Below, in pieces: positions 1 through 39,783 of a stretch of DNA of 64,000 nt. Location of the stretch: NCBI GenBank assembly GCA_016212635.1, contig JACRFR010000018.1, forward strand, positions 4,080 through 68,079, in the 5' to 3' direction. The first letter of the stretch is position 1. Every line of letters begins with the position of its first letter. The translations under genes and the position numbers were made by a program. Source of the stretch: Candidatus Liptonbacteria bacterium (GTDB taxonomy: Bacteria; Patescibacteriota; Minisyncoccia; UBA6257; 2-01-FULL-56-20). The notes beneath the pieces are model-generated. The model saw only the letters and a program-made list of their open reading frames with translations. It had not been told where the DNA came from and made no database searches.

Positions 1-3000
1 TTCTCCCCGGGAAAGATGACATCCGGGATGTCATGCGCTCGATTCAGGCGAAGGCGGAGCAGCTCAAGTGCGAAGGCAATGTCGAAGTTTTGTCTTGCCA
101 TGGGGAATCGACTCCCGAGGAGCAGGATCGTGTGCAGACACCACTCAAGCCCGGCACGCTGCGGTTTGTTTGCGGCACGGAAGTGCTTCGCTCGTCAGTG
201 ACGGTTCAAAATACCATTGGCATTATCGATTCGCTTCAGATCAAACGTCTGATAAGTGATGCAAAAGGCGTTGGCCACTTGGACAAGATTGCGGTTTCGA
301 AAGCCGAAGCCGATCAAGGAAAGGGACGCGCGGGCCGGACCCGCCCGGGATTCTATATGCCCGTGTCATTCGGATCGGAATATGAACGTCTGAACCCCTA
401 TCCGACTCCCGCTATATTACAGCAACCCATTACGAACGTAGTCCTTCAAGTTGCGGCCATTGACCGCTCGGCGCGGGATTTCGCATTCATTGATAAGCCA
501 CCGGCGGACAAACTTGAAACCGCGCTTACTCGCCTGAAGCGAATTGGTGCGCTGGACGCGGAAGAGAAAATAACCGAAGCCGGAGAAATGCTGGTGCAGT
601 TCCCGCTTGATCCGGAGCGGGCGAAGGTACTTCTCGTCGCGGAGAAACTCGGCGTGCTTTCCGAAGCGGTTATTGCGGCGGGAGTGCTCGAGGCAGAAAA
701 TGTTTTCTTCAGCCCAAACCGCGAACAGAAAACGTGCATGGTCGAAGAGACAGTGATGCGAAAAATTCTTTCGCATGTCGAAAAGGAGGAAAGGTATGGA
801 AGCGAATATTGGAAAAAGTTGTATGAACCACGCGATCCGGCAACTGTTGATATTGCCATCTTGCCAAAGTGGGCGAAGAAAAAAGGAGAGTATTGGGAAG
901 TCGACATTTCCGATTATGACTTTCCAATCGAAGATGGTGTCCGGGGAATTTCTAATGTGGTTCGCAAACAATGGGCAGGCAAAGATAAAAGCGACTTCGC
1001 AACCATTGTGCGGGCGTACCGTGCGTTTAAGGGCGAAGAGCGGCGGCTCCGCGATGCAGAACCTCCGCGCGAGCCTGGTCAGCAAAGAGAATCTCCCACA
1101 ACATGGAGGCGGAATATGCTTCAAGCGTGGTGCGAGCGCAATTTCATAAATCAGAAACGCATGCGCGAAGCCGAGCGAATCATGCATGAAATTCTTGATG
1201 AGCTTGATAACTCGCCGCTTCGTACGGAAAACCGCATTGCCTATAATCGCGACTTCAATGCCGAGTCATTAACCAAGGCGCTCGCTGCAGGACTTACGGA
1301 CAATGTCGCCCGAAAAAGCGGACGAGGTTTTACGGGCCCAATCGTCGAACGAGGACAGGATTTTCAGATCGGGCGGGAATCGGTGTGCCCAGATGGAAGC
1401 GAGCTTGTGATTGTGAGCGGCGTGCGTAAAATCCCGACACGGCGCCAAAGCTTCTTTTATCTCGCCGACCTCGCAGCGCCCATCAAGAAAGAATGGCTCA
1501 AGGAGGTCATGCCGCAACTTTGCACAAGCCGCCGAGAAGCAGATGCCGCGTACAGTCCCGACGCCGATGCAGTTCTTGAGACGGAAGCTTCGTTTTACGC
1601 CGATTTGGACCTTGGCCGCGAAAAAGTTCCCGCACCTTATACCGCCGAAAACGCACAGCGATTTGCCCGATGGCTCGCGGGATATAATGCAGCTCGGGAT
1701 ACAAAAAACGAGAAGCTTAAAGCTGTGCTTTTGGCCAACGATATGCAACAACAGCGTGCTACGAACCTGAACCTTCGTGTCGGAGAGGCGAAACTAAAAC
1801 AGTATTCAAACGAAGAAGTTTTTGCATTTTATTCTGAAAAATTGGCCGGTGCTTGGAAGCAGTCGGAGGTGGAAAACTCCGACGACTTACGCCTTCCGCC
1901 GCTCGAAGATGCTGAAGTCGAAAAGATACTTGCGCTTTACCCCGACAAGATATCCATTCTCGGGTCTGATGCTGAAGTTACGTACACTCAGCAGAGCAAA
2001 CGATCCGAAACTGGAGAATACGCGAATGTCATGGTTGCCCGAGTAAATCTCGGGGATCTTTCGGAGGGAAATAAATGGATGCAACTTCCGGAAGAAGGGG
2101 TAAAGCTGCCAAGCGGTTTCGTGGCAGAAATTCAGGTTTCTATAAAACGGGACGGATCCTATTGGAGCGAGAATTTCTCGAATACCGATATTGTCGCCTT
2201 GAAGGAAAAAATCACGGGGTACTTGAATCGTTCATTATGGGAGGAGTGGAAAGAACGTCCGGAAATTACAGCCCCTAATCCGGAAGATGATGATGCGGTT
2301 TTGCCCGCTATTACAACGGCTTCATATGGAACGTCTGTTGTGGATGGAACACCTCTAATGGCTTACGGCACGGTAGTCTTTAATTCCAATCGATACTATT
2401 CAACCGATCCTAGTTTCAAAACAGAATGGTTTTCGGTTCGTTTGGAGGCGGAAGAGTCCCACGCAAAAGCCGGAACGGAACTAGATAGCCTGAAAAAAGA
2501 GCGGCGCGATCAGAGAGAACTGAAAAGCGCGCAGGAAGCCGCGCAGCAATCCAAGGATCGGCTGAATAAGCTTTATGACCAGTACTACTACTCCGAAATA
2601 GATTCCGAGATGCGGAGTAAATTATACAACCGACGTTATGAATCGCTTCCATACCAAGCGTCGGAACTCAAGCAATGGAAAGCTGAGATCGACGCAACCA
2701 TCGCGGAGGTGGAAAGCGCGGTGGTCGAGGCGAATCGCAAAGGGGAGGAGGAAAACCAGCTACTTCTGAATTCTGCTCGTCCGATTGTCATGCCGGGAGA
2801 GACTACCAACGAGAACACCGTGTACGGGATGCCCTGCAACGAAGAAGGTCCCTGCGATGCGGATGTCGCCACCGAATGGCGGTTGTACTCTTACCAAGAC
2901 AGAAGATTACGGCCACACAAAGGATATCGTTCCAAATCATATGGCACCACCTTTGCGGAACTGATCCAAGATTATTTGCGCGACGATCCGAATTTGGATG

Positions 3001-9100: not shown

Positions 9101-9175
9101 TGGTGCCCCCGGCAGGAATCGAACCTGCATCACCTCCTTCGGAGGGAGATATCCTATCCGTTGAACGACGAGGGC
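9101..9175 (-). tRNA. tRNA-Arg (anticodon CCG), 75 nt with encoded CCA.
   Basis: Folded by hand. Acceptor GCCCTCG/CGGGGGC, D-arm, anticodon stem TCTCC/GGAGG with loop CTCCGAA (U33, A37), 4-nt variable loop, T-arm GCAGG-TTCGATT-CCTGC, discriminator A, CCA. Confidence 0.85.
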
Positions 9176-14212: not shown

Positions 14213-14797
14213 CTAACGCGGCGGGTTCAAAATTTTAAGCGCGGCGCGGAGACGATCTTCCAAGTTAACCAGGGATTGGTCCACCCGGCCCAGGGCGGAC
14301 TTGGCGTCCTCCCGACGATAACCCAATCCGGCCAAGGCCTCCACCAGGTCCGTATCCGTGCCCATGCGAGCGATAGTTTCCGCGCTTTCTGCCGCCGTCA
14401 CTTTGTTCCGCAGTTCCAGAATAATCCGCTCCGCGGTTTTACGGCCGACTCCCGCCGCGCGCGCCAGCGAGTCGGGACGATTCTCCTGGATCGCCGCCGC
14501 GAGTTCCTGCTGGGGCGCTACCTCTAAAATTGCCAGAGCGGACCGCGGGCCGACGCCGCTCACGGTGATCAGTAGCTCAAAAAAGGCGAGTTCCGGTTCC
14601 GATTCAAAACCGTATAAGGTAAAACCGTTGGCCTCGGTGAAGTGTTGATGGCACCAAACACGAAGCGAACCGCCCGGACTCGGAAACTTGAGAAGGTTGT
14701 GGGCCGGGGCGAAAACCTGGTAGCCCACTCCCTGGACGACAAGAACCAGGTAAGAGTCGGTTTTTTTGAGCACTTGGCCCTCTAGCGTGCAAATCAT
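14213..14797 (-). CDS. ruvA: Holliday junction DNA helicase RuvA.
   Basis: MICTLEGQVL...LITVSGVGPRSALAIL (HhH)...C-terminal domain III. The start was moved to the internal ATG at 14797, which matches the RuvA N-terminus. Confidence 0.9.
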   Translation of the reverse strand: MICTLEGQVLKKTDSYLVLVVQGVGYQVFAPAHNLLKFPSPGGSLRVWCHQHFTEANGFTLYGFESEPELAFFELLITVSGVGPRSALAILEVAPQQELAAAIQENRPDSLARAAGVGRKTAERIILELRNKVTAAESAETIARMGTDTDLVEALAGLGYRREDAKSALGRVDQSLVNLEDRLRAALKILNPPR

Positions 14798-23432: not shown

Positions 23433-25946
23433 TTACACTGAATTAAAAAGTGAATTAAATTTCCGCCTCCATTCGTTTTCGAAAATAACTTGGAAATTTA
23501 TATGGCTCTTTTGGAGTGCTAATCCCAAATCGCTCATTTTCTTTTCGTCCGCCATTTTATTGCACACTTCGAAAAGCGACTTTTTGTAATCGGTATCCTC
23601 GTTTTTTAGGTGCACCCCTTTTGTTTCGATTATAAACACCGACCCGCCGACCTTTCCGTTGGCTACGGAGAAAATAAAGTCGGGGTACACTTTTTGTTTT
23701 TTCCACCCTTGAATGGCATAATCGCTACGCGCGACATTCCGGAACCAGAAAAACAACTTGTCCTGGTCCTCTAGATACCATGCCACCGCTTTTTCTGTTT
23801 TGTTAAACTCGTCCTCTGCTACGAATTCAAACAAGCTTCTCTGAAGCGGCTGCCCATCATTTCGTAAGAGTGGGCGTGATAAAGTTTTTGCCTTGATTTG
23901 CTTAGGGAATTTGAAGCCGAGATCGTTTCCGATCACCAGAAACTTCAGTCGTCCCGCGTCAAGAAGTTTTTGAAACACTTGTTTCGAAAGGCGATTTTTC
24001 TCGCTTGAAAGAAGTTTGCGCAATTCCTCGATAACAAAAACAAAATTATTGGCCACCAATTTAATATTGTGCCGGGCAATTAATTCTTTAAGCACCAAGG
24101 CACCGATTTTATAGGAAAGCCATGGATTGGGTACAATATCGAGCAGGTGCCGAGCGAGAAAAACTTCATCTAACTTTAAAGCGCCGCTTCTCAAATGTTT
24201 TACACCCTGTTGTTCGATAAGTTTGTGCGGGTTGGTAGCTAGCGACACGATCTGCTCGATGTCTTTTTCTTCGATGAGGGAGAGGGGAAGCGAATACATC
24301 GGCTCGATATTTATTTCATTCCAGTCAATGCGGCTTGCAATGTCGCGCTCATAATTTACGACCCAAGATTCCCGCCCGTCTTGCATGACGAATACGGGCA
24401 GGATAATCTGGCTCACCGCTTTTTTGAATTTTTCCCGAATCAAAACGTTTTTTTCTCTAACCGCTTCTGATCCTTCAAGGCCTTCGTCCGTTACCACTTG
24501 CCCCGCAAGATCGCCAAGCCCCTCCTGTTCGAATCCTGATCGAATGTTCGACAAAAGAGCGCTGGCTCGTTGTTGGTAGCAAAACACATAACTTTCATCA
24601 AGCTCTTTCACTTTTGTTTTCCTTGCGAACGGCTGACGAAGAATGCGTCCAACGAGCTGGGTTAAAGCATTCTGGGATGTCGGATTTGAAAGAATGGTTA
24701 GCACATACGCAAACGGGCAGTCCCAGCCCTCCTGAAGCGCTTGCTTGGTTATGATGTACCTGATCTGACAATCCCGCGACAAAAGTCCGCCCACGTCATC
24801 GACCTCTTTAAGTTCGTCCTTCTCGCTTGTTTTAGTGGCGATCTGCTCGGCCGGAATGCCCATGGTTTTTATGAGAAACTCGCGCACGTCTTCGGCGTGG
24901 ATACGCCCGCTATCCCTTTGGTCTTTTCCGGTTCGTTCAACTTGAATCAAAACAATCGGGCGGATATAGGCTCCTTTATTCGCCTCGTACTCTTGTGCTT
25001 TTTCTTCTAAAAAACCGCGATGGTTTACCGCCGCCAAAAGTGTATCTTTCCAATCCGTGCTCGCCTTATTGATGATGTGCAGGTCAAGCTTAATCATTCC
25101 CTCCTGATTAAGTTCCGCGCCGCGAATATCAACCAAAATATTGCTTTCTTCCGGCGGTGTTGCGGAAAGTTCAAGAATCATCAAGGGGTTGAAACTGCGA
25201 AGCGTGCTCTGCGCCGTTTCACTGTATGCTTTGTGTCCCTCGTCAAGAATGATTAAAGGATTTAAAAGCCGGAGCGTGTTTCCCAGTGATGTTTTGATCT
25301 GATATTCCCAAAAGTTTCCCGCCTCGCCATAAGTATTGAGGTTGGGAATTTGTTTTAGTAATTCTTGATTGGCCTTGATGTTGTCCTCTGGCGGGAAGAA
25401 GTCCTGAAAACCGCCATTGTCTTTAAACATCCGGAGTGTCTCTTTGTTTTGACGCGAAGCCGACGGCAACATCAGTATAAGGACTACTAGATTTTCGTTT
25501 ATATCGAGCGGGACAAACCGATCCGTTTTCTCCAAAATCGTAGTCCGACCACCACTCGCAATATCAAGGTGTTGCCGATAGGGATGTTCTCGATCTCGTA
25601 AACTTCTTATCGTTTGATTATAAATTTGCGTGGTGGGCACTATCCAAAGAATAAGCCCTGTGCGCTTTTTGAGATAAGTTGTATTGATGAGATCGATCGC
25701 CTTTACGGCAAGCAGTGTTTTGCCGCCGCCGGTTGGGATCTTGAGGCAGAAGTTAGGCAATGGATTACCAATGCCGTTTTTATGCGAGTGATACTTCTTG
25801 CCGACTTCTGCCTTTTCCCACGCCTTCGCCGGAAAATCTATCTCCAGCTCCGGGTTTTGCGCGGCTTTCGTGCGCCAACCATTAAGTTGCTCGAGGTAAT
25901 GCTTGAGCTGTTCCAGGGTCTTTATTTGATAATCCTTGAGTTCCAT
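23433..25946 (-). CDS. res: Type III restriction enzyme Res subunit (SF2 helicase plus C-terminal PD-(D/E)xK nuclease).
   Basis: PTGGGKTL (motif I), LIILDEGHKA (DEAH-like motif II), and a C-terminal VYPDFIF...IIETKG nuclease motif. Confidence 0.85.
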   Translation of the reverse strand: MELKDYQIKTLEQLKHYLEQLNGWRTKAAQNPELEIDFPAKAWEKAEVGKKYHSHKNGIGNPLPNFCLKIPTGGGKTLLAVKAIDLINTTYLKKRTGLILWIVPTTQIYNQTIRSLRDREHPYRQHLDIASGGRTTILEKTDRFVPLDINENLVVLILMLPSASRQNKETLRMFKDNGGFQDFFPPEDNIKANQELLKQIPNLNTYGEAGNFWEYQIKTSLGNTLRLLNPLIILDEGHKAYSETAQSTLRSFNPLMILELSATPPEESNILVDIRGAELNQEGMIKLDLHIINKASTDWKDTLLAAVNHRGFLEEKAQEYEANKGAYIRPIVLIQVERTGKDQRDSGRIHAEDVREFLIKTMGIPAEQIATKTSEKDELKEVDDVGGLLSRDCQIRYIITKQALQEGWDCPFAYVLTILSNPTSQNALTQLVGRILRQPFARKTKVKELDESYVFCYQQRASALLSNIRSGFEQEGLGDLAGQVVTDEGLEGSEAVREKNVLIREKFKKAVSQIILPVFVMQDGRESWVVNYERDIASRIDWNEINIEPMYSLPLSLIEEKDIEQIVSLATNPHKLIEQQGVKHLRSGALKLDEVFLARHLLDIVPNPWLSYKIGALVLKELIARHNIKLVANNFVFVIEELRKLLSSEKNRLSKQVFQKLLDAGRLKFLVIGNDLGFKFPKQIKAKTLSRPLLRNDGQPLQRSLFEFVAEDEFNKTEKAVAWYLEDQDKLFFWFRNVARSDYAIQGWKKQKVYPDFIFSVANGKVGGSVFIIETKGVHLKNEDTDYKKSLFEVCNKMADEKKMSDLGLALQKSHINFQVIFENEWRRKFNSLFNSV

Positions 25947-25955
25947 GGGTCGCCT

Positions 25956-25973
25956 GTGGATAACTGTGGATAA
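25956..25973. promoter_or_regulatory. Two tandem perfect DnaA-box-like 9-mers (TGTGGATAA x2; TTATCCACAG x2 on the res strand), 10-30 nt upstream of the res start codon.
   Basis: CTGTGGATAACTGTGGATAACT. The same 12-mer CTGTGGATAACT occurs at 13299-13310, 17 nt upstream of the Mur ligase start. Confidence 0.5.
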
Positions 25974-25975
25974 CT

Positions 25976-26068
25976 TTGACTTTCTACATTAATCTCTGCT
26001 ATACTGCAGGCGTAGGAGAAATCCTACTACTCACGCGGTCCCGCCAAAAGCGGGATTTTCGCTTTTTA
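25976..26068 (+). ncRNA. Candidate ~55-nt plus-strand transcription unit between res and the NYN gene: a sigma70-like promoter (TTGACT-18-TATACT), a GTAGGA-GAAA-TCCTAC hairpin, then an intrinsic terminator (CCCGC-CAAAA-GCGGG + ATTTTCGCTTTTTAT).
   Basis: All elements were read directly from the sequence. It is oriented antisense to the res/NYN operon. Confidence 0.35.
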
Positions 26069-26737
26069 TACGTAAAATCTTTTGCCGGTATAAAATTTGC
26101 CAAAGTCAATATATTTATCTTTGATGCCATGTAATTCTCCTGCCACTTTCCCCCGCACGCCAGCAATGCCGATTTTTTTGCCTTTTACTTTCAGTCGTTC
26201 TATTGGTTTTAATAAATCCGAATCGCCAGAGAATAAAATGATTGCTGTCGCTTTTTCGGCATCATCCAGCATATCCATTGCTATTTCCACATCAAAATTA
26301 CACTTCGGCTCTTCAATTATCGTGCCGAATTTATTAAGCTCACTCATTAGCTCCTGAATCTTTTTCCTAACGCCTTCATCAAACAAAGTCAGCGTCCGGC
26401 GCTGGAAGAATAAGCCCTCGTCAATATTTTTTGGAATAAACTTCATCGGTTTTGTTCTTAAAATAGCGCCGGCCGTCCTAATGCGATTATGGAAAGCTTC
26501 GGAGTTTTTCTCGTCTCGCTCATTCAAGCCGTAATAAACCTTAACTTCTTTTATGTTGGGAAAGTTAAACAGTTGCTCCACTATGTCCTCTATGCGGAAT
26601 TTCCACCCTAGAACATCTTGCCAATGGAACATATTCGTTAAATCTAAATAAGCAAAGATTGATGTCTCTTTACTTATCCATTCCAAATAATCTTGTCTCA
26701 CAATAAACTTATTCAAAACGTCTCGTGGAATATCCAT
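26066..26737 (-). CDS. NYN-domain (LabA-like PIN-related) putative nuclease, encoded between the type III mod and res genes.
   Basis: ILFSGDSDLLKPIERLK and N-terminal acidic motifs. The start ATG 26737 lies 4 nt after the mod stop. Confidence 0.7.
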   Translation of the reverse strand: MDIPRDVLNKFIVRQDYLEWISKETSIFAYLDLTNMFHWQDVLGWKFRIEDIVEQLFNFPNIKEVKVYYGLNERDEKNSEAFHNRIRTAGAILRTKPMKFIPKNIDEGLFFQRRTLTLFDEGVRKKIQELMSELNKFGTIIEEPKCNFDVEIAMDMLDDAEKATAIILFSGDSDLLKPIERLKVKGKKIGIAGVRGKVAGELHGIKDKYIDFGKFYTGKRFYV

Positions 26738-26741
26738 AGCT

Positions 26742-28439
26742 TTATTTCGCCAGTTTATAAATCTCAAACGGCAATTGGGCAAAAACGATGCGGTATCCGT
26801 CCAGTTTTTCCTGGTCTAGATATTTTGTGGGCGCGAAAACCAAGCGCTTCTTTGTTTTCACTTTCCCAAGCTCTTTCGCTTTATCCAGAGTAAGAGCAGT
26901 ATTTTTTAGATAAGCGAGATCTGGCTTGTAGAAAAGATAAACCTCGTATTCTTTGCTTTCGCCGATAAAATTCTTCTTCTCGTTTATTTTCTTTTCGTTG
27001 AATTCCTCGCCGGTCGCGGTATAAAAAACATAGCGCGCGAGTTCGTTGTAGGAAGGCAGATTTTTGCCCGACAAAATGCTTTCCATTTCTATCGGTTTGC
27101 CGAGTTCAAAATAGCTAAATGTTCCACCTAGTCCTTTTTTGAGATTCTCGTCTTTGGCGGTTTTCACTCCCCTGATGACGCGCCGCACTCGCTCCGCGGT
27201 TATTGTGTCAGTGTAATCTTCCATCTCAACGAGGATAAATTTTCGATTGCCACCATCCTCTTTGTTGAGCGCCAAAACTGCGTGAGCAGTCGTGCCAGAA
27301 CCGGCAAAGGAGTCGAGAATTATGGAATCTTTATCTGTTGCAATTTCTACAATTCTTTTCAGTAAACCTAACGGCTTAGGATATTCAATTGTTTTTCTCT
27401 CGAGAATAAGTTTTAAAAGCTTGCCCCCTAATTCCGTATTGACCTCTGAATCCAACCACATTGAACGAGGTTTAGCGGTTTTTTGTTCGCCGTTTCGATT
27501 CAAATAATCTTTAATAAAAATGTCGAATTCATCTCGACCGCTTACTTTTCGGCCATATATTCGATTAATTTCATCCATCACTTTTTTCTTGCCCCACATC
27601 CATCTACCATCCCTTCCGTCAGATTTTCTTGGGAAAACTTCAACTGTGTGATCTTTAGTTTTCTCTAAACTTACAATCCCGTTTTTTGAATTAACATAAA
27701 TTGGAAAAAACATTTCTGGTCTTTCTTCGCGTAAAGAAGCGGCTCCGCGCTGGCGTAAACCAAGTTCTCTCCATTTCTTGCCGTCTTTATCTTGCTGATC
27801 GTATTCATCAATATTTTCTTGTGTCAGAGGCAAACCATTCAAAATTACTTCGTCTATGCCCCTGGTATAACAAAGACAATACTCATGCAACGTAGCAACG
27901 TTTTCATCAGATTGGCGACCGCGCGGATTAGCTTTGATCGAAAAGTTGGTAATGAAGTTTTCTTCGCCAAAAACTTCGTCCATTAAATCTCTTAGATGAT
28001 GTTGTTCATTGTCATCAATCGAAATAAAAATCGCGCCGTCGTCTCGCAATAATTCTCGTAATAACTTTAAGCGCGGTGTCATCATGCACAACCATTTATC
28101 GTGGCGGGTTAGATCGTCGCGATCCACCACCCTCCCCAGCCATTCCTGCATCATCGGAGAATTCACATTGTCGTTATACGCCCATCTTTCATTGCCGGTG
28201 TTGTATGGCGGATCGATGTAAATGCACTTTACCTTGCCCGCATAGGTAGGGAGTAGCGCTTTGAGGGCGACAAGGTTGTCGCCGTGGATAATAAGGCTAT
28301 CATCCAGCCGGACATTGCCTGCCCTTTTATCCTTCCCTTCGACCAAACTCAAGGCAGGTCGCGGAATAAGCTCGCGGTACTTCACCGCCAGATGATGATT
28401 CTGGACGAATTGCTTTCCTTTGAAATTCAGTTGGGCCAT
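26742..28439 (-). CDS. mod: Type III restriction-modification Mod subunit (N6-adenine/N4-cytosine DNA methyltransferase, beta class).
   Basis: IYIDPPYNTGNE (DPPY motif IV) before DSFAGSGTTAHAV (motif I). Confidence 0.85.
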   Translation of the reverse strand: MAQLNFKGKQFVQNHHLAVKYRELIPRPALSLVEGKDKRAGNVRLDDSLIIHGDNLVALKALLPTYAGKVKCIYIDPPYNTGNERWAYNDNVNSPMMQEWLGRVVDRDDLTRHDKWLCMMTPRLKLLRELLRDDGAIFISIDDNEQHHLRDLMDEVFGEENFITNFSIKANPRGRQSDENVATLHEYCLCYTRGIDEVILNGLPLTQENIDEYDQQDKDGKKWRELGLRQRGAASLREERPEMFFPIYVNSKNGIVSLEKTKDHTVEVFPRKSDGRDGRWMWGKKKVMDEINRIYGRKVSGRDEFDIFIKDYLNRNGEQKTAKPRSMWLDSEVNTELGGKLLKLILERKTIEYPKPLGLLKRIVEIATDKDSIILDSFAGSGTTAHAVLALNKEDGGNRKFILVEMEDYTDTITAERVRRVIRGVKTAKDENLKKGLGGTFSYFELGKPIEMESILSGKNLPSYNELARYVFYTATGEEFNEKKINEKKNFIGESKEYEVYLFYKPDLAYLKNTALTLDKAKELGKVKTKKRLVFAPTKYLDQEKLDGYRIVFAQLPFEIYKLAK

Positions 28440-28471: not shown

Positions 28472-29533
28472 TTACAGCAGTGTTCCTGGCTGTTTTTTTC
28501 CCAAATGCTCATAGGCGGGCGCAAGCGCCACCCGGCCTCCCGGTTTGCGCTGGAGGAAGCCGAGGCTCATCAAAAAGGGCTCGTACACTTCGGCGATCAC
28601 ATCCTCGTCCTCATTCAGCGCCGCCGCCAGGGTGTTCAGGCCTACCGGTCCGCCGCCGAACTTGTCAATTATTGTTTCCAGCAGGCGGCGGTCGTGCGGC
28701 TCCAAGCCTCGCGCATCGATTTCTAGGAGTTCCAGCGCTTCCCGGGCGGCCGGCACGTCGATCGCGCCTTGTCGATGCACTTCGGCGTAGTCGCGCGCGC
28801 GGCGCAACAGCCGGTTAGCCACGCGCGGGGTGGCCCGGGCGGCGGCGGCCAGGATCGAGACCGCCTCCGCCGCGATTGCCGTACCCAAAATTTTCGCGGA
28901 GCGGGCTAGGATCTTTTCAATGTCATGGTCGTGATAGTAGGTTAGCCGGAACGTAGCCCCGAAGCGCGAGCGCAGGGGTTGGGATAAAAGATTCTCGCGA
29001 GTAGTTGCGGCGATCAGGGTGAAGGGGGGCAGGTCGATCATGAGCGCGCGAGCGCTGGGACCCTTACCCACCACTAGGTGGAGTTTGTAACTCTCCATGG
29101 CGGGATAGAGAACTTCCTCGATCATGCGGTTGATCCGGTGCGCCTCGTCGATGAAGAGCACGTCTCGGGGTTCTAGGTTGGTCAAAATGGCGGCCAGGTC
29201 TCCGGTTCGCTCCAGGGCCGGACCGGAAGTTACTTTAACCTGGCTGCCGAGTTCGCGCGCGGTCAGATAGGCCAGAGTGGTCTTGCCTAAGCCCGCCGGT
29301 CCGGAAAAAAGCAGGTGATCCGCCGCTTCCTTCCTTTGTTTGGCGGCCCGCAGTATGACCTGGAGGCTCTTCTTTATGTTCGCTTGACCCACAAAGTCAT
29401 CCCAGTTGGCGGGTCGCAGGGTTAGGTCCAGGGCCGCATCATCCGGTCCGGCATGCACGTTTAAATCCTTATTTTTACTGGCTTTTTTATCATTCATTAG
29501 AATAGGGGCGGGGTTGGCCAACTCTATTGACAA
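28472..29533 (-). CDS. ruvB: Holliday junction helicase RuvB.
   Basis: LFSGPAGLGKTTLA, VLFIDEAHRIN, sensor and arginine-finger regions. The start is either TTG 29533 or ATG 29497. Confidence 0.95.
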   Translation of the reverse strand: MSIELANPAPILMNDKKASKNKDLNVHAGPDDAALDLTLRPANWDDFVGQANIKKSLQVILRAAKQRKEAADHLLFSGPAGLGKTTLAYLTARELGSQVKVTSGPALERTGDLAAILTNLEPRDVLFIDEAHRINRMIEEVLYPAMESYKLHLVVGKGPSARALMIDLPPFTLIAATTRENLLSQPLRSRFGATFRLTYYHDHDIEKILARSAKILGTAIAAEAVSILAAAARATPRVANRLLRRARDYAEVHRQGAIDVPAAREALELLEIDARGLEPHDRRLLETIIDKFGGGPVGLNTLAAALNEDEDVIAEVYEPFLMSLGFLQRKPGGRVALAPAYEHLGKKQPGTLL

Positions 29534-29561
29534 CGAAAATGTTTTGTGCTAGTATCTGTGT

Positions 29562-29808
29562 CATTGAAAGCTGGTTGTTATTTGAGATCTGGGGGCTTTG
29601 CCCCTGCACTCAAGAGGACGGTTTTCAGTCTTTCTTCTTGAGTGTGGGGGCCGGAAACATCCTTAGCCTAGGACGGTTTGGCTCCGGCGAAACCCATCCT
29701 CGGGATTCTTCCAATCTCTTTTATTTTAAAGAGTTTAACCCTTTGGGGACACGCCCCTAGATCTCAGATAATCACTTTTTACTGCCGCCCGCAAGGCAGG
29801 TTATTTAT
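29562..29808 (+). ncRNA. Candidate ~245-nt structured small RNA (rod-like, 6S-RNA-like architecture) driven by a consensus promoter (TTGACA 29527-32, 17-nt spacer, TAGTAT 29550-55) and ended by a terminator hairpin (29782-29799) plus a T-tract.
   Basis: There is no plausible ORF. The 5' segment 29574-29596 (GTTGTTATTTGAGATCTGGGGGC) is complementary to the 3' segment 29753-29775 (GCCCCTAGATCTCAGATAATCAC), with internal hairpins. Confidence 0.35.
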
Positions 29809-29876
29809 CAGCGAATAACGAATTGGTTACGAATTTTCGAATTCGTAGATTCGAGACATATTCGTAATTCGTTGAC

Positions 29877-31559
29877 TTACCACTCGATCGGTCCGGTCAC
29901 GCTTTCCACTTCCGCCAGAGTAGTCAGGCCGGCTAAAAATTTCAGGATCCCGTCGGCTTGCATGCTGGTCATTTTTTGTTCTTGCGCCAACTTGCGCAGC
30001 GCCACGTGGGACGCAGACTGAAGGACCGCTTCCTGAAACTCCGGCTGGTCGGTTTCCAGGAATTCGAATATGCCGATCCGCCCCCGAAAACCAAATTGAT
30101 TGCAGGCCTCGCAACCCGTTTGGGTATTGACCGTGGCGGGACCATCGGCCAGAAAGGCCGCGTAGGGAGCTTGGTCTACTTGGGGCGGCAGGTGTTCCAG
30201 AAAGGCGCGGACCTTGGGACGAAGTTCGGCTGGTACCTCTTGGGGCTTGCGACACTTAGCGCATAGCCGCCGCACCAGACGCTGGGCGATAACCAAAGAA
30301 AGCGCCGGTCCGACCGTGGCTGTTTTGACCCCCAGGTCGACCAAACGGGGAATGGCTCCCACGGCGTCGTTGGTATGGAGGGTGGAAAAAACCAGGTGGC
30401 CGGTCAGTGCCGCTTGGAGGGCAATGTCCGCGGTTTCCTGGTCTCGAACCTCACCCACCAGAATAACATCCGGGTCTTGCCGTAAGATGGCTCGGAGGCC
30501 GCTCGCAAAAGTGTAGCCGGCCTCCGGGTCGATCTGGGTTTGCTCGATACCGGCGATGCGGTACTCGATCGGGTCTTCTACGGTGATGATCTTTATCTCG
30601 GGCGTGAGCACGTGGCGCAGAAATGCATACAAAGTGGTGGTTTTGCCCGAACCGGTGGGCCCGGTATTTAAGATTAAACCGTTGGGCTTGGCTAGTTGTT
30701 GCTCCACCAGTTTTAAGAGGTCGCTCCGGAGGCCCAGTTCGGGCAGGGTTACGGATATCCCGGCGGGGTCCAGGATGCGCATGACCACCGTCTCGCCGAA
30801 CTCGGAAGGGATGATCGAGACGCGGACCTCGATCTCTTTGCCCGCCACGGTGATCGTGAACCGGCCGTCTTGGGCCTCGTCTTTGACGTTCAGTTTCATC
30901 TCGGAAACCAGTTTGATCCGCGAGAGCAGGTGCTCATAGGGTTTTGGGGGGACGTCCCCCGCGGAGTGGAGCAGGCCGTCGATCCGGAGACGTATCTCCG
31001 CGCCGCCCTGGGTCGCCTCGAAGTGAATGTCGGAGGCTTTGTTCTGCAGCGCCCCAACTATGATTCGGCGGTACAGCTCCGCGGTACCCACCCGGCTGTA
31101 GTCCAAGGAGTCCAACTCGACTTTGAGCGCTTGAAAGGAATTTATTTTGGCGCCCAGCTCCGCGAGCTCCTCGGCGGTCACTCCCAGGGTGCCGGTGATG
31201 TCCGCTGTGGGTAGGGAGATGAAGCGGTAAAAGGCCCAGGCTTGGTCCAAGCTGGACTGAGAGCCCACGTAAATTTTGACTTTCAATTTTTTCTGGATCA
31301 AACCCGCGACTAATTTTTTGGCCGGCTCCAGGTGGGGGTCGAACATGACCAGCGCCAGTTCGTGCGCTCGAATTTGGATGGCGGCGGTTTGAGTCGCTTT
31401 GGCATCGGCTTCGGGCAGGAACTTCATGGCCTCGAGCGATATTGGTGTTTTACGCAGGTCCACATAGGGGAACCCCAGGGTCTTGGCCCGCCGCTCCGCG
31501 TCGCGTTCTTCCGCGTCGCGCTGGAGCGCCGCAAGCTGATGTTGGAGGTTGGAGGGCAT
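29877..31559 (-). CDS. pilB: Type IV pilus / type II secretion assembly ATPase (PilB/GspE family).
   Basis: LNTGPTGSGKTTTLYA Walker A, GEVRDQETADIALQAALTGHLVFSTLHTNDA. Confidence 0.9.
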   Translation of the reverse strand: MPSNLQHQLAALQRDAEERDAERRAKTLGFPYVDLRKTPISLEAMKFLPEADAKATQTAAIQIRAHELALVMFDPHLEPAKKLVAGLIQKKLKVKIYVGSQSSLDQAWAFYRFISLPTADITGTLGVTAEELAELGAKINSFQALKVELDSLDYSRVGTAELYRRIIVGALQNKASDIHFEATQGGAEIRLRIDGLLHSAGDVPPKPYEHLLSRIKLVSEMKLNVKDEAQDGRFTITVAGKEIEVRVSIIPSEFGETVVMRILDPAGISVTLPELGLRSDLLKLVEQQLAKPNGLILNTGPTGSGKTTTLYAFLRHVLTPEIKIITVEDPIEYRIAGIEQTQIDPEAGYTFASGLRAILRQDPDVILVGEVRDQETADIALQAALTGHLVFSTLHTNDAVGAIPRLVDLGVKTATVGPALSLVIAQRLVRRLCAKCRKPQEVPAELRPKVRAFLEHLPPQVDQAPYAAFLADGPATVNTQTGCEACNQFGFRGRIGIFEFLETDQPEFQEAVLQSASHVALRKLAQEQKMTSMQADGILKFLAGLTTLAEVESVTGPIEW

Positions 31560-31801: not shown

Positions 31802-31840
31802 TTGTAATTTTAGAGGTGGTGTGCTATAATCCCATCTATG
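31802..31840 (+). promoter_or_regulatory. Sigma70-like promoter (TTGTAA-17-TGcTATAAT) whose predicted start site coincides with the ATG at 31838, i.e. a leaderless mRNA.
   Basis: The -10 is at 31825-31830 and the ATG at 31838, with no room for an SD. Confidence 0.45.
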
Positions 31841-32557
31841 AAATCACCAGAGGGAACTCCAAGTCAGGGGCAGGATGGGCCGGAAAATCCAAAGCGGCGG
31901 AGGTTGCTGAAAGGTGTCCTTGGTTTGGTTGGATTTGGGGCCCTAACCGAGCGAAAGGCGGAGGCTTCAACTAAAATAGGATTTAGTAATCAAACTGGCG
32001 AAACTATCGTGATTATTGAGAATGGGCATGGGAAAATAGGCAGGACTACTTTGAGGCCCGGCCAGGTTTCAAGTAAAAGAATTTTTGCAACTCAACCACA
32101 GGGGAGATTTAACCGGATGGACTTTTTTGTTTTAGAACCAACGGGACGAAAACCAATCGAAAATCCTCCGCCCGAATTTACGGAATGGCTCCTAAAAAAT
32201 GACATACGTTTTGCTGGGAGATCAGAAAGAGAGATGCCAGAGATAATTAGAGGTATTATCAACATCTCTAAAGACGAGGAGGCAGCTCTTAGGGCGCTTG
32301 TGGAGCCATATAAAAAATCTTTAAAGGGGCGGAAGGTGTTGGGCCGCGATAGCGAGCGTAGCTCCGAGGGATTACTAGACCAAATTGATGGCTGGCAGAA
32401 AATTGTGAAGCGAGTCGGGGATCGGGAGGGCGCGCGCGAGATTCCTATTGGGAACTTGCAGGAATGGGTGCCAGGGGCAGGCCAGGAAAGCAGTATTAGT
32501 ATAGATTTCGTCCAGGAACCAGATGGCAGAATTAAGGTTGTTAGAAAGTGGAATTAG
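31838..32557 (+). CDS. Secreted hypothetical protein with a twin-arginine (Tat) signal peptide.
   Basis: KRRRLLKGVLGLVGFGALT near the N-terminus. Confidence 0.5.
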   Translation: MKSPEGTPSQGQDGPENPKRRRLLKGVLGLVGFGALTERKAEASTKIGFSNQTGETIVIIENGHGKIGRTTLRPGQVSSKRIFATQPQGRFNRMDFFVLEPTGRKPIENPPPEFTEWLLKNDIRFAGRSEREMPEIIRGIINISKDEEAALRALVEPYKKSLKGRKVLGRDSERSSEGLLDQIDGWQKIVKRVGDREGAREIPIGNLQEWVPGAGQESSISIDFVQEPDGRIKVVRKWN

Positions 32558-32860: not shown

Positions 32861-33406
32861 ATGTCTGGTCATTCTCATTGGGCTGGCATTAAACACAAAA
32901 AGGGCGTTACCGATCAAAAACGCGGGGTTTTGTTTTCCAAGCTTTTAGCCGCGGTTACTATCGCCGCCAAGGGCGAGCCCGACCCGGAGTTCAACCCTCG
33001 GCTTCGGACCGCGGTAGAAACGGCGCGCGAAGCCCAGGTGCCCAACGACAATATCACGCGAGCCATTAGGCGCGCCGCTGACACCTCTGCTGTTTTAGAA
33101 GAATTAATGTTCGAGGCCTACGGTCCCGGCGGGACGGCGATCTTGATCGAGGCGATCACCGACAGCCGCAACCGGACCGTTGCGGAGGTGAAGCATATTC
33201 TCTCTGAACGGGGAGGGAAGTGGGCGGATTCAGGCAGCGTCCAGTGGGCCTTTGAGCGTGTTTCTGGTTCGGATGGTTTGAAGTGGCAGGCAAAATTTCC
33301 CATGGAGTTATCCGCCGCCGATATGGAACAGTTAAAAAATCTCCTGGGGGCCATAGATGAGCATAACGATGTACAGGAGGTTTATACTAACGCTAAATTA
33401 GAATAA
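32861..33406 (+). CDS. yebC: YebC/PmpR-family transcriptional regulator (short form).
   Basis: MSGHSHWAGIKHKKGVTDQKRGVLFSKLL. 181 aa. Confidence 0.85.
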   Translation: MSGHSHWAGIKHKKGVTDQKRGVLFSKLLAAVTIAAKGEPDPEFNPRLRTAVETAREAQVPNDNITRAIRRAADTSAVLEELMFEAYGPGGTAILIEAITDSRNRTVAEVKHILSERGGKWADSGSVQWAFERVSGSDGLKWQAKFPMELSAADMEQLKNLLGAIDEHNDVQEVYTNAKLE

Positions 33407-33489
33407 AGAATGGAGAATTAAGAATTAGGGGGGGTTATGCTCTCGTTATTTTTGCTTAATTCTATATTCTAACTTCTAAATTCTACCCC

Positions 33490-34005
33490 ATGATTATCCT
33501 CGGCATCGACCCGGGCTCGCGGCGAATGGGATATGGTGTGGTGGAACAATCCGGCCCGCAACCGGTGTTTGTAGCCGCCGGCGTTTTACCGGTCACCGCC
33601 CGAACCGAGCCGGAGGCGCTCCAGGAGATCAAAACCGGTTTGGATGCGCTGCTGCGCAAGTATCGGCCGTCCGCGGTCGCGTTGGAGAAGCTGTTCTTCG
33701 TGCGCAATCAGAAAACAGGCATTGCCGTAGCCCAGGCGCGGGGAATCGCGCTACTCGCGGCCGCGCAAAAGGGTTTGCCGGTTTATGAATTCGCCCCCAA
33801 TGAGATCAAGGCGGGTATTACCGGCAATGGCGCGGCGGATAAGCGGGCGGTGCTTAAAATGGTCCGAATTATTCTAAACCAGCCAGCCCTAGTGGTGATT
33901 GATGACGCTTCCGACGCCCTGGCTTCCGCCCTGTTGGCCGCTCAAAAATTTAGAAATAATTTCAACATTAAACCGAAAAATTCTGGGAATAGCGGAGGGG
34001 GTTGA
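33490..34005 (+). CDS. ruvC: Crossover junction endodeoxyribonuclease RuvC.
   Basis: MIILGIDPGSRRMGYGVV... (RNase H-like). Confidence 0.9.
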   Translation: MIILGIDPGSRRMGYGVVEQSGPQPVFVAAGVLPVTARTEPEALQEIKTGLDALLRKYRPSAVALEKLFFVRNQKTGIAVAQARGIALLAAAQKGLPVYEFAPNEIKAGITGNGAADKRAVLKMVRIILNQPALVVIDDASDALASALLAAQKFRNNFNIKPKNSGNSGGG

Positions 34006-37191: not shown

Positions 37192-38301
37192 TCAGGAAGT
37201 CAGGATGGGGGCGATAATGTAGAAAAAGGAGGGGTCTTTGGGGTTTTTAAGCAGGGCGGGTTTGTCTTCGTTAATTCCCCAAAAAACATCTTCCCCGATT
37301 AAAGACCTAAGTCCATCCAAAAGGTAGCGGGCGTTGAAGGTTACGCGGTTGAACCCATTGGTGAGTTTTACCGGGAGGAGATACTGGTTCTCTCCGGCCA
37401 CCGTGTCGCCGGAAGAAAGTTTTATGCCGTTTAGTGTTTTTTCCGGCTCGACGCGAACTTCGTTGTTGCGCCCGCCCAAAACACTGACTAGCTTCAGGGC
37501 GTCAATCAACTCTTGTTTTTTTAAAGTAACTTCAGCGGTAAAAGCGGAGGGGATAATGGTTTGGTAGTCGGGGAAAACTCCTTCCACAAACCGGGTAATG
37601 CACTCGAAGTTTTTTGTTCGCACTAAAAGTTGGGATTGGTCGGGTAGGAGCTCAACTTCGTCGGTGTCTTTAATGGTTCGTAACAGCTCTTGAATGGTGC
37701 GCAGGGGGATCAGTTTTCGTAGGGGTTGCGGGTAGCCGCCTTGGTATTGTCCGCCGGTGACGGTTTTTTCCGCCAAGCGATAAGTGTCGGTCGCAACCAA
37801 CCGTATATTATCGATGGAATAGTCCCACAGAACAGAGGATAGTTCCGGTCGCAGGTCGGTAATTTGCGCCGCGCCGGCCACCGGACCCAGCGCTCCCCGG
37901 AAAACGCTTCCGGTCATAGAAATTTTTTCGGTTTGGTTGCTTATTTTGGGAATAATTGGAAAGTCCTCCGCGGGCATCCCGTTGATACTGCCTTCGTAAT
38001 TCTCGGTTTTAATCAGTAGGGCTTGTTGTTTCTGTTCGAGATTAATCCGCTCGCTGGTTAGATTGCCGACAATATTAGAAAGTAGTCCCAGTGGTGTCGT
38101 TAGGCTGCCGCCTTCCAGAACTTTGCCCGGAACTGAATATCGGAGGGCGATCTCCAGGTTGGTGGCGGTTAGGGTTATGTCCTCGCCCCTAGCTTCCAGA
38201 AGAACGTTTTTTAGAATCGGCAAACTTGCACCCTCGCCTAGCGCGCGCTCCACCACCACCAACCCTTCTTTAAGATGAGCCCGAAGCACTATAATCTTCA
38301 T
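37192..38301 (-). CDS. dnaN: DNA polymerase III beta sliding clamp.
   Basis: Three-domain beta clamp. N-terminus MKIIVLRAHLKEGLVVVERAL. Confidence 0.9.
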   Translation of the reverse strand: MKIIVLRAHLKEGLVVVERALGEGASLPILKNVLLEARGEDITLTATNLEIALRYSVPGKVLEGGSLTTPLGLLSNIVGNLTSERINLEQKQQALLIKTENYEGSINGMPAEDFPIIPKISNQTEKISMTGSVFRGALGPVAGAAQITDLRPELSSVLWDYSIDNIRLVATDTYRLAEKTVTGGQYQGGYPQPLRKLIPLRTIQELLRTIKDTDEVELLPDQSQLLVRTKNFECITRFVEGVFPDYQTIIPSAFTAEVTLKKQELIDALKLVSVLGGRNNEVRVEPEKTLNGIKLSSGDTVAGENQYLLPVKLTNGFNRVTFNARYLLDGLRSLIGEDVFWGINEDKPALLKNPKDPSFFYIIAPILTS

Positions 38302-38412
38302 TTTTATAAATAATAATACTAGTAGTAGTTAATAGTGGCTGGGGATGTGGGGATAAGAGGGATAAACCAAAGTAAATAATACCAAAAAAAAGGAAAGAAA
38401 TCCCCACAAATT
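38302..38412. promoter_or_regulatory. Candidate oriC/DUE region (AT-rich with imperfect DnaA boxes) between dnaA and dnaN.
   Basis: TGTGGGGATAAG and TCCCCACAAA are box-like sequences, and there are long A/T runs. Confidence 0.4.
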
Positions 38413-39783
38413 TCAGCTCTTGTTGATAAGTTCTCGGATTTGGAACATTTTTTGGTTTAAATTGGAGTTTTTAGTCAACTCTACGGTTATTTTTTCGAAA
38501 GAATGGATGGCGGTGGTGTGGTCCCTACCCATCTTTTCCCCAATATATGGATAAGATAGTCCCAAAATATCCCGAAGCAGGAACATGGTTACTTGGCGCG
38601 GCTCCACAATTTCTTTGCGGCGGCACCGCCCGATCAAATCAGTGGTGGGGATATTATAGAAGTCAGCTACTGCGCCAATAACCTGCGCGTCACTGACCGG
38701 CCGGGAGAAGGCTTGAATGGACTTATCAATGATCTCCTCCGCCACCTTACGGCTGATATCAGTTTGTTTTTTATCCTGATAAAAAACAATCTTATTCAAA
38801 ATTCCTTCCAGCTCGCGGATATTCTTTTTAACTCGGCGGGCGATCAAATCCACCACCTCATCCGAAAGCAAACGCCCGCCCTGTTGCAGTTTGCTTTTAA
38901 TAATCGCCACCCGGGTCTCATACTCCGGATAACTAATATCCACAATTAAACCACCCTCAAAACGCGAGCGCAGACGTTCTTCTAAGGTTGGAATAGATTG
39001 CGGAGGCCGATCGGAAGAAATGATTATTTGTTTATTGTGTTCATATAAAGCATTGAATGTGTGGAAAAACTCCTCCTCGGTTTTTTCCTTACCCCCAATA
39101 AACTGAATATCGTCGATGATCAACACATCCACATCCCGATACTTCTTTTTAATGTCCTCCATGCGTTTATTGCGGATCGCCCAAACCACATCGTTAGTGA
39201 ACCTTTCCGAAGTTACATATTTAGGCCTAACTGTGCCATGATAACGCAGTAAGATCTCATTACCCACAGCCTGGATTAAATGGGTCTTGCCTAAACCCAC
39301 TCCCCCGTATACAAAAAACGGGTTGTACTTGGTGCCGACATCCTGCACAACCGCGCTGGCCGCGGCGTGAGCCAGCTCATTAGAGGAACCTACGACAAAA
39401 CTGTTAAGGGTGTATCGGGAGTTAAGGTTGGTTTCGGGATCAACCCTAAACTCCAAACTAATTTGACTCTGGTTGGGGCTGGTTCGCTCCCCGGCCGCCG
39501 CCGCCCGTTTATGGGCTTCCTCGGCGGCTTCGCTGATAACCACAAACTCCAGTTTTTTTACCGAGTCGTCAAAGATCCGAATGATCCCCAAAAGATCTTT
39601 GTGATATTTGTTTTGCACCCACTCTTTGGCGAAATTGTTTGGCAGGCCGACACAACCAACCCCATCCCGCCGATCCAAAAAACAACTGCCTTTTAACCAA
39701 GTAGCGAAATTAGCCCGAGAAGTTTTTTGCTCCATCTCACCCAAAACCAATCTCCACAAATTTTCCAAATCCATAAAAGCCAA
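38413..39783 (-). CDS. dnaA: Chromosomal replication initiator DnaA.
   Basis: GGVGLGKTHL, the AAA+ domain, and a C-terminal DNA-binding domain. Confidence 0.95.
   Translation of the reverse strand: MAFMDLENLWRLVLGEMEQKTSRANFATWLKGSCFLDRRDGVGCVGLPNNFAKEWVQNKYHKDLLGIIRIFDDSVKKLEFVVISEAAEEAHKRAAAAGERTSPNQSQISLEFRVDPETNLNSRYTLNSFVVGSSNELAHAAASAVVQDVGTKYNPFFVYGGVGLGKTHLIQAVGNEILLRYHGTVRPKYVTSERFTNDVVWAIRNKRMEDIKKKYRDVDVLIIDDIQFIGGKEKTEEEFFHTFNALYEHNKQIIISSDRPPQSIPTLEERLRSRFEGGLIVDISYPEYETRVAIIKSKLQQGGRLLSDEVVDLIARRVKKNIRELEGILNKIVFYQDKKQTDISRKVAEEIIDKSIQAFSRPVSDAQVIGAVADFYNIPTTDLIGRCRRKEIVEPRQVTMFLLRDILGLSYPYIGEKMGRDHTTAIHSFEKITVELTKNSNLNQKMFQIRELINKS

Follow-up and report, generated by a model that had tools for sequence, protein, structure and literature searches.

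We identified, in a 64,000-nucleotide stretch of DNA from a Candidatus Liptonbacteria bacterium (assembly GCA_016212635.1, contig JACRFR010000018.1, positions 4,080 to 68,079 of the forward strand; the whole stretch is called the window hereafter), a gene for a structured non-coding RNA located between ruvB and a pilB-like gene, at 29527-29808 on the plus strand. The predicted RNA is stand-alone and about 220-250 nucleotides (nt) long. As judged from the comparison of homologous sequences, it is the product of an autonomous, single-copy plus-strand gene with a conserved promoter and a four-way-junction fold supported by covariation, and the family to which it belongs is new, being absent from Rfam 15 and from the searchable literature; its functional kind may prove familiar. 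We favour, with moderate confidence, the reading of a stand-alone structured RNA of a new Paceibacteria-type family of the candidate phyla radiation (CPR), most likely serving as a protein-binding scaffold or decoy. The CPR, or Patescibacteria, represent a large share of bacterial diversity, possess tiny genomes and are almost uncultured.

Homologues and extent of the family

The closest relatives of the window RuvB (60-73% identity) come from CPR/Patescibacteria metagenome-assembled genomes bearing Parcubacteria, Colwellbacteria, Wolfebacteria and similar labels, and the chromosomes of the CPR relatives retrieved with this protein measure about 0.83-0.89 Mb. As these loci were fetched via the protein, they are free of RNA-motif bias. 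A nhmmer search with the window RNA gave matches in 7 of the RuvB-retrieved genomes, each just upstream of ruvB, on the other strand, and each of the seven homologues exhibits a TTGACA-17-TAnnAT promoter and its own fold of the same architecture. A MAFFT alignment including the window copy placed the 5' strand of its closing helix, P1, in an insert; the first covariance model, R1, was therefore built without the window, from the MAFFT alignment of the 7 genome homologues. R1 recovered the window copy (62.5 bits, E = 3e-14) together with an eighth genome (L008), which brings to 8 the related CPR genomes where a homologue lies head-to-head with ruvB. R1 mistook the duplicate GGGGGC within the insert for the P1 5' strand of the window copy, and the true P1 was taken from the minimum free energy (MFE) fold. 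Membership of the family was assigned to the window copy on a full-length R1 match, P1, the P2-P3-P4 arm and a plus-strand consensus promoter, all of which it presents.

Scanning of metagenome contigs with the motif of the P3-P4-P2 arm gave at least 120 matching stretches, and 117 of the 120 matches listed correspond to a full-length R1 match (E <= 2.5e-13). Genome loci and metagenome copies together amount to at least 105 distinct sequences of 143-212 nt, with a median of 172 nt; the counts of 105, 87 and 83 members or loci used below include the metagenome copies among the matches listed. The same motif gave 0 matches in viral contigs, and no second strong sense-strand match was observed on the same contig among the contigs listed. 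Within the RuvB-retrieved species, the RNA is present in the loci of 8 of 39 and, more weakly, of 4 further ones, and the non-CPR loci among those retrieved showed no relative of it. A second model, R2, used with no filters, revealed weaker syntenic relatives upstream of ruvB in L028 (31.9 bits, E = 2e-6) and L017 (E = 1.5e-3), and sub-significant matches in L007 (E = 0.05) and L014 (E = 0.28), which we consider as tentative syntenic relatives only. These four distant relatives retain a long P1, the AGGAC...AUCCU arm and the AUUGC junction segment, and they share with the window copy a hairpin between P1 and P2. Two other R2 matches, in L010 (1177-1321) and L012 (1566-1650), are generic long hairpins and were not retained as members.

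In L011, the public record is masked by a run of N at about 3709-3830, just where the syntenic RNA is expected, and the 5' part outside the mask is similar to the L017/L028 subtype (AAATCTCTAAGCAA). In L110, a weak model match (24-26 bits), consisting mostly of a long stem, lies at 3256-3408 on the minus strand, 30 nt downstream of a genuine RNA and on the opposite strand to it; this second element may be an inverted copy that has degenerated, or a hairpin with no relation to the family.

Consensus structure and covariation

The consensus exhibits a P1 helix of 22-23 base pairs (bp; 20-23 across the copies), with a nearly invariant top, CUGgGGGC/GCCCcCAG, and a compact four-way junction, where P1 and P2 are separated on the 5' side by 0-3 unpaired nt. 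From the junction extends a long arm that begins with P2 (gGAAU.../...AUUCU), continues through an asymmetric bulge on the 5' side, in which a UA is conserved, and then P3 (AGGAC/UCCU), and ends in the P4 hairpin; P5 and P6 are the two remaining hairpins, both variable. The one-sided bulge within the arm is the sole sizeable unpaired stretch. Invariant positions lie in the helices near the junction (CUGGGGGC/GCCCCCAG, GGAAU/AUUCU, AGGAC/UCCU); the loops, P5 and P6 are variable and accept insertions, P6 being missing in L028, shortened in L008 and absent in some members, and a conserved single-stranded "seed" is almost absent from the family.

RNAalifold applied to the plain MAFFT alignment of 7 genomes yielded 58 pairs, of which 30 present compensatory double changes. 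In an alignment of 87 sequences fitted to the model (A5), 92.9% of the pairs are canonical, in comparison with 77.3% in shuffled alignments (0 of 500 reach the observed value) and 41-56% when the partners are slid by 1-3 columns, and double changes are found in 40 of the 58 pairs. Considering that A5 is model-fitted, the pair counts were repeated on A6, an alignment of 42 diverse members made with MAFFT blind to structure, which showed 93.1% canonical pairs against 77.3% in shuffles and 39-53% with slid partners. Double compensatory changes affect 18-19 of the 22-23 pairs of P1 in A5 and A6 (18/22 in A6). P2 is 91-95% paired across the family, with double changes in 3-4 of 10 pairs (4/10 in A6); the inner P4 pairs covary (e.g. 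AU 11 / CG 11 / UA 11), and an extra purine-pyrimidine (R-Y) pair that extends P3 occurs as G-C 24 / A-U 11 in A6. When RNAalifold was run on the 42-sequence MAFFT alignment it recovered P1 and P3-P4, mis-drew P2 and lost P5/P6. P2 was then tested explicitly and holds, and the loss of P5/P6 is explained by variable hairpins not aligning without a model; the support for these two hairpins comes from the 7-genome MAFFT alignment and A5 only. A mutual-information screen for pseudoknots, loop-loop or long-range contacts returned just one extra local pair. The fold is kept by compensatory evolution across lineages whose RuvB is about 55-75% identical to that of the window. An earlier reading of the window letters (the original prediction), which had proposed a rod-shaped, 6S-like small RNA at this place, had called for a check of conservation and covariation in related genomes, and both are now observed.

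The strand of the RNA is fixed by the same data. The model scores 120-169 bits on the sense strand and 24-52 bits on the reverse complement, i.e. 3-4 times higher on the former, and many pairs are predominantly G-U (e.g. GU 63/78 and UG 41/78 in A5). On the pilB/ruvB strand these G-U pairs would be A-C mismatches, which, together with the promoter, rules out a pilB 3' untranslated region (UTR) or a ruvB leader, the fallback that the original prediction had left for this region. That no RNA gene exists, and that the region is a pilB 3'-UTR followed by the ruvB promoter or leader with a chance structure, would agree with its location between two co-directional minus-strand genes and with the z of -5.1 obtained for the minus-strand fold. 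Against the covariation, the G-U strand asymmetry, the sense-strand scores and the presence of a plus-strand promoter in 80 of the 87 listed copies, we give this explanation practically no credence.

Promoters and 3' ends across the family

A TTGACN-16..18-TAnnnT element is located at most 84 nt upstream of the RNA in 80 of 87 copies, mostly in the form of TTGACA-17 with TGCTAnnAT. A U tract follows P1 directly in 35 of the 105 distinct members, and a separate hairpin terminator is found in 25 of them. The 3' ends of the terminator-less copies may be produced by read-through and trimming back to P1. P5 with a following U tract was also considered as an internal terminator, flagged in the homologue L001 (3855-3878, minus strand, U6), but the U tract is not conserved and the candidate was rejected.

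The copy of the window

The window promoter (29527-29555), of the sigma-70 type, matches the consensus at 10 of 12 positions and carries in addition the TG of an extended -10. The pattern TTGACA-N14-TGnTAnnnT occurs at 1 site in the 64 kb window, where 0.03 are expected, and the promoter is the best in its neighbourhood. The start of the RNA was placed about 7 nt past the -10 element, both ends being predicted from the letters; the candidate 3' end is the CUUUUUAC tract (29776-29783), which directly follows the closing stem, or, should transcription stop at the downstream hairpin terminator, about 29808. The original prediction had reported a consensus promoter pointing away from ruvB into a gene-free stretch, a closing stem of about 20 bp, a terminator and no open reading frame (ORF), and all of these hold. 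The promoter letters stand at 29527-29555 and are the single such site of the window; 29577-29596 pairs with 29753-29772 over 20 bp in the MFE fold; CTGCC-N8-GGCAG followed by GTTATTTAT is present at 29782-29808; and the window shows no credible plus-strand gene between the RNA and 31838, where the next one begins. The 77-amino-acid TTG ORF at 29527-29760 (plus strand) has no Pfam match, no frame is conserved in the family, and the longest stop-free stretch of its members has a median of 43 codons, compared to 57 for the full length; the small-ORF reading was rejected.

The plus strand at 29562-29812 folds with an MFE of -114.4 kcal/mol (z = -8.18; 0 of 200 shuffles as good), and the minus strand of the same region with -91.3 (z = -5.13). 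The outermost 6-bp helix of the MFE fold (29570-29575 with 29807-29812) is without comparative support. The rod around internal hairpins proposed by the original prediction did not stand, as the interior is a multi-helix (four-way) junction by comparative analysis. The window copy looks rod-like and 6S-like by eye because of the 52-nt P1a insert. Among the approximately 100 distinct relatives listed, an insert between P1 and P2 is present only in the window (~50 extra nt) and in L145 (~20 extra nt), and by this comparison the P1a hairpin is an insertion specific to the window lineage. The blocks TGGGGGC and AGGACGGTTT are repeated in register, 55 nt apart (29577-29689), which suggests that P1a derives from an old partial tandem duplication (55 nt) of the 5' part of the RNA; Tandem Repeats Finder made no call on the suspected 55-nt duplication, just the two short blocks being in register.

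Comparison with known RNA families

Rfam 15 (4227 covariance models), applied to the whole window at the gathering score, gave as sole match a tRNA at 9104-9175. With permissive filters and E <= 10, the region 29400-29950 gave just microRNA and small nucleolar RNA noise, and in the same way the homologue L001 (3780-3990) gave at E <= 10 only noise and no family. The best overlapping matches, mir-4659 (17.6 bits, gathering 92) and PyrR (18.1 bits, gathering 54), both have E > 1. The models of signal recognition particle (SRP) RNA and RNase P RNA (RF00169, RF01854, RF00010 and RF00011) had no match at E <= 10 in the window region or L001, and the SRP helix-8 GNRA/AGCA motif and the RNase P P4 sequences were not found by eye. 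CPR RNase P RNAs are diverged, yet detectable with RF00010 at lowered thresholds (PMC8172020). ARAGORN found 0 tRNA or transfer-messenger RNA (tmRNA) genes in 29300-30000 and no tRNA-like T-arm or D-arm. The statement that the RNA is not RNase P RNA, tmRNA or SRP RNA is consequently supported, Rfam and ARAGORN being without a match.

The assignment to 6S RNA (SsrS) was not confirmed. None of the 6S models (RF00013 and lineage variants) matched the window copy or L001 at E <= 10 in the covariance-model search that had been proposed, and the conserved fold is a four-way junction without the two-sided central bubble which, by mimicking an open promoter, is the defining trait of 6S RNA (PMC4064990). 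The other side of the original proposal, "another regulatory sRNA", is the one retained: the locus is an independent plus-strand small-RNA gene with its own promoter, end-pairing helix and terminator, and with no Rfam family. In a search of the openly available full-text literature, no 6S RNA or structured small RNA family was found described in CPR, and the literature searched does not describe CPR non-coding RNAs beyond rRNA, tRNA and RNase P.

Genomic neighbourhood

The features of the window copy and of the surrounding genes are collected in Table 1. A pilB-like gene is convergent downstream of the RNA in 73 of 87 loci. In L043, L044 and L083, an LTD-domain gene instead of ruvB stands beside the RNA and the promoter is retained; no ruvB is adjacent in L087, L093 and L099, where the upstream gene is unannotated. 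The other neighbours that replace pilB or ruvB encode DUF5671, transketolase, DnaA and DUF5666 proteins, again with RNA and promoter retained. This persistence beside differing neighbours argues for an autonomous gene. The RNA has no downstream same-strand gene to control, as a riboswitch or leader would have.

Table 1 Positions of the RNA gene elements and of the neighbouring genes in the window
Feature	Position	Strand	Basis or remark
-35 hexamer TTGACA	29527-29532	+	equivalent TTGAC[A] kept in 80/87 family members
Extended -10 TG-C-TAGTAT	29547-29555 (TAGTAT 29550-29555)	+	17-nt spacer to -35, ending TGC
Predicted primary RNA	29562-29783 (or to ~29808)	+	fold z, R1 match, family U-rich tail after P1
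P1 5' strand (closing helix), top CUGGGGGC	29577-29596	+	20 contiguous bp with 29753-29772 in MFE fold
P1a, 21-bp hairpin inserted at P1/P2 junction, 52 nt	29600-29651	+	MFE fold
P2 5' strand GGAA-AC-AUCCU	29653-29663	+	pairs with 29702-29712
Asymmetric 5'-side internal loop/bulge UAGCCU	29664-29669	+	holds the conserved UA and the extra covarying R-Y pair
P3-P4 arm: AGGACG, UCCG-loop hairpin, AUCCU	29670-29700	+	most conserved module; 94-96% paired in family
P2 3' strand GGGAU-UC-UUCC	29702-29712	+	AUUCU nearly invariant in family
P5 hairpin, variable	29716-29733	+	all 6 model pairs with double changes in A5
P6 hairpin, variable	29739-29748	+	all 5 pairs with double changes in A5
P1 3' strand	29753-29772	+	MFE fold and family covariation
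Hairpin terminator CTGCC-N8-GGCAG (29782-29799) and GTTATTTAT	29782-29808	+	local to window copy
ruvB	28472-29506	-	Pfam RuvB_N / AAA_lid_4 / RuvB_C; head-to-head, ATG ~20 nt from RNA -35
pilB-like T2SSE ATPase	29877-31559	-	Pfam T2SSE 4e-114; convergent with RNA
Type III restriction "res" helicase	23433-25946	-	
NYN-domain protein	26066-26782	-	
N6/N4 DNA methylase	26742-28439	-	

In the ORF list, ruvB is given a TTG start at 29533, which would overlap the -35 of the RNA, while homology favours the ATG at 29506. yebC and ruvC belong to the same block as the RNA, pilB and ruvB. A ruvA gene was located at about 14402-14797 (minus strand) with an E. coli RuvA query; the distance from ruvA to ruvB is about 6-14 kb in the window and in those CPR loci that gave a ruvA match, whereas in non-CPR bacteria it is directly upstream of ruvB. 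The idea that the RNA sits in the place of a missing ruvA was rejected, since ruvA is present. The ruv genes of the window are thus scattered, with ruvA about 14 kb from ruvB and yebC-ruvC (32861-34005, plus strand) beyond pilB.

Several observations were made around the gene. dnaN-dnaA (37192-39783, minus strand) is about 8-10 kb from the RNA gene, which places the latter in the origin-proximal region, and in L046 the gene that immediately follows the RNA, in the same orientation, is dnaA. The interval 29808-29875, which separates the RNA terminator from the pilB stop codon, forms a 68-nt imperfect palindrome (34-nt arms, 76% complementary) built of ACGAAT/ATTCGT units, for which the rest of the window shows no enrichment; candidate explanations are a site for protein binding, a terminator working in both directions and a small insertion. 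Directly downstream of ruvB, a low-GC stretch (0.40-0.47) extends over 23433-28439 on the minus strand and comprises the helicase, NYN and methylase genes of Table 1. The methylase and NYN genes had no tblastn match in related loci, and the stretch is probably an acquired restriction-modification island. Additionally, an ORF of 239 amino acids upstream of yebC-ruvC (31838-32557, plus strand) has no Pfam match and no tblastn match among the 159 loci compared; a possible N-terminal twin-arginine-like signal, RRRLLKG, was noticed by eye.

Proposed function and alternatives

For the scaffold or decoy reading, the following action may be proposed. The RNA would be abundantly made, to judge from the strength of its promoter, and long-lived, both ends being buried in P1. 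It would act as a folded molecule and not by base-pairing, and would bind a protein, either as the scaffold of a ribonucleoprotein (RNP) or as a sequestering decoy, the peripheral hairpins being free to vary. Strong transcription of the RNA, head-on against the pilB-to-ruvB read-through, would be a by-product or a second function. The proposal is drawn from the conservation of the junction-flanking helices, the near absence of a single-stranded seed and the variable periphery, and from the fact that RNase P, SRP, 6S and Y RNAs behave likewise.

A number of points weigh against this reading. The scaffold or decoy role, with its putative partner protein, is inferred from the conservation pattern only, and the conservation in P3, P4 and the 3' strand of P2 is partly imposed by the search motif; the top of P1 and the 5' strand of P2 are outside that motif and still conserved. 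About 40% of the members listed have no recognisable terminator, which makes the mature 3' end uncertain. The conserved pilB-RNA-ruvB placement is tight and leaves no room for a separate ruvB promoter, and no promoter-like site for ruvB was detected on its own strand in the window or L001. Tight placement and lack of a detected ruvB promoter together keep a cis role live. The geometry makes overlap of the RNA with any pilB-ruvB read-through or ruvB 5' UTR unavoidable, and ruvB transcription, as predicted from this arrangement, probably crosses the RNA gene head-on. In such a cis role, the gene would be a strong convergent antisense unit between pilB and ruvB that blocks or tunes the pilB-to-ruvB read-through by polymerase collision and by RNA duplex formation and cleavage, with a structure serving mainly for stability, and the terminator-less copies would send antisense transcripts into the 3' end of pilB. 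The RNA gene indeed occupies all of the space between pilB and ruvB: in 76 of the 83 listed loci with enough flank, a head-to-head ruvB stands within 400 nt, the last aligned pilB codon is at most 10 nt from the end of the RNA model in 22 of 87, the -35 of the RNA falls within the first ruvB codons in L001, and in the CPR loci retrieved with RuvB, presence of the RNA or a distant relative coincides exactly with the pilB-gap-ruvB arrangement. The frequent lack of a terminator fits as well. However, compensatory evolution is not needed for a cis role, whereas covariation with strand-specific G-U pairs is seen over four to five helices (58 pairs); both RNA and promoter are kept where ruvB (LTD-domain gene) or pilB (DUF5671/transketolase, dnaA) is replaced; and the sequence-invariant junction helices suggest recognition of a folded RNA. 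We therefore hold a cis role, taken as the main function, to be unlikely.

The RNA could instead be the functional 6S analogue of these CPR with a non-canonical fold, a binder of the sigma-70 holoenzyme that dampens transcription; stacking of P1 on the P2-P4 arm would in that case give a rod of about 46 bp, in which P5/P6 take the place of the 3' side of the central bubble. The size of 143-212 nt, the long helix pairing the 5' and 3' ends and the very strong housekeeping-type promoter of a stand-alone single-copy gene agree with such an analogue, as do the silence of the searched literature on 6S RNA in CPR and, weakly since most of the genome lies outside the 64 kb window, the fact that a canonical 6S was not seen in it. 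The failure of every Rfam 6S model and the compact junction, whose arm has a lone one-sided bulge in place of a two-sided one, speak against it, and we rate it as distinctly improbable. A ligand-sensing orphan riboswitch-like aptamer or a ribozyme, with the four-way junction as binding or catalytic pocket, would account for the conserved nucleotides clustered around a multi-helix junction and an internal loop, and strong covariation is a pattern typical of this class; on the other hand, the RNA has a dedicated strong promoter and is not embedded in another transcript, no same-strand gene follows, a P1 of 20-23 bp is far too stable to switch, no Rfam riboswitch or self-cleaving ribozyme matches, and the mutual-information screen gave no pseudoknot or long-range covariation. 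This makes an aptamer or ribozyme very unlikely. By analogy with 6S RNA mimicking an open promoter, the RNA might also be imagined as a Holliday-junction mimic, acting as a decoy or loading cofactor for RuvA/RuvB. Its shape, in which P1 and P2-P4 form two long arms (each about 23 bp) beside two short ones, and its context, with ruvB synteny in 76 of the 83 loci, yebC-ruvC in the same block and ruvA displaced by about 6-14 kb, invite the comparison; the RNA junction has unpaired linkers, and A-form RNA is not known to be a RuvAB substrate, so that this is a speculation of very low probability.

With such retention in a genome of about 0.8 Mb, the RNA probably matters to the cell. The models R1 and R2 and the alignments A2, A5 and A6 provide a concrete handle on a CPR RNA and bear on whether CPR possess a 6S-type regulator. 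If the partner is a core machine (RNA polymerase, ribosome or recombination motor), the RNA would define a new RNP; if the role is cis-antisense, it would represent a conserved uncoupling of pilus and recombination genes in streamlined genomes.

Likeness to known systems

With SRP (4.5S) RNA, RNase P RNA and tmRNA, the CPR RNA shares a strong promoter, single-copy status and a core that is conserved while the peripheral helices vary, and it differs from them in having no Rfam or ARAGORN match. The cis-antisense or "excludon" arrangements resemble it in the opposite co-directional gene pair, both members of which it abuts, and in the complementarity to a pilB-ruvB read-through; cis-antisense RNAs are normally without compensatory evolution of a 58-bp multi-helix fold, whereas the CPR RNA has it and survives changed neighbours. 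6S RNA (SsrS; RF00013) is similar in its length of about 150-220 nt, its stand-alone gene with a strong sigma-70 promoter, the pairing of its ends in a long helix and, probably, its action as a folded RNA and not by base-pairing; the CPR RNA has no match to its models at E <= 10, and has a four-way junction without a two-sided central bubble. With Y RNA and YrlA (partners of Ro60/Rsr) are shared the long end-paired stem whose conserved segment closes a multi-helix module and a likely use in protein tethering or scaffolding. The CPR RNA has no Rfam match to them and no tRNA-like T- or D-arm according to ARAGORN, and neither rsr nor rtcB was found among the annotated neighbour genes; the tRNA-like module of Y RNA probably has an arm order and arm sizes different from those of the CPR RNA. 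The orphan small RNAs, such as the raiA motif RNA and the phylum-named motifs, are all in Rfam and none of them matches the CPR RNA; with these it shares discovery through covariation only, an independent unit, a junction fold and a restricted range, which in the present case is CPR/Patescibacteria.

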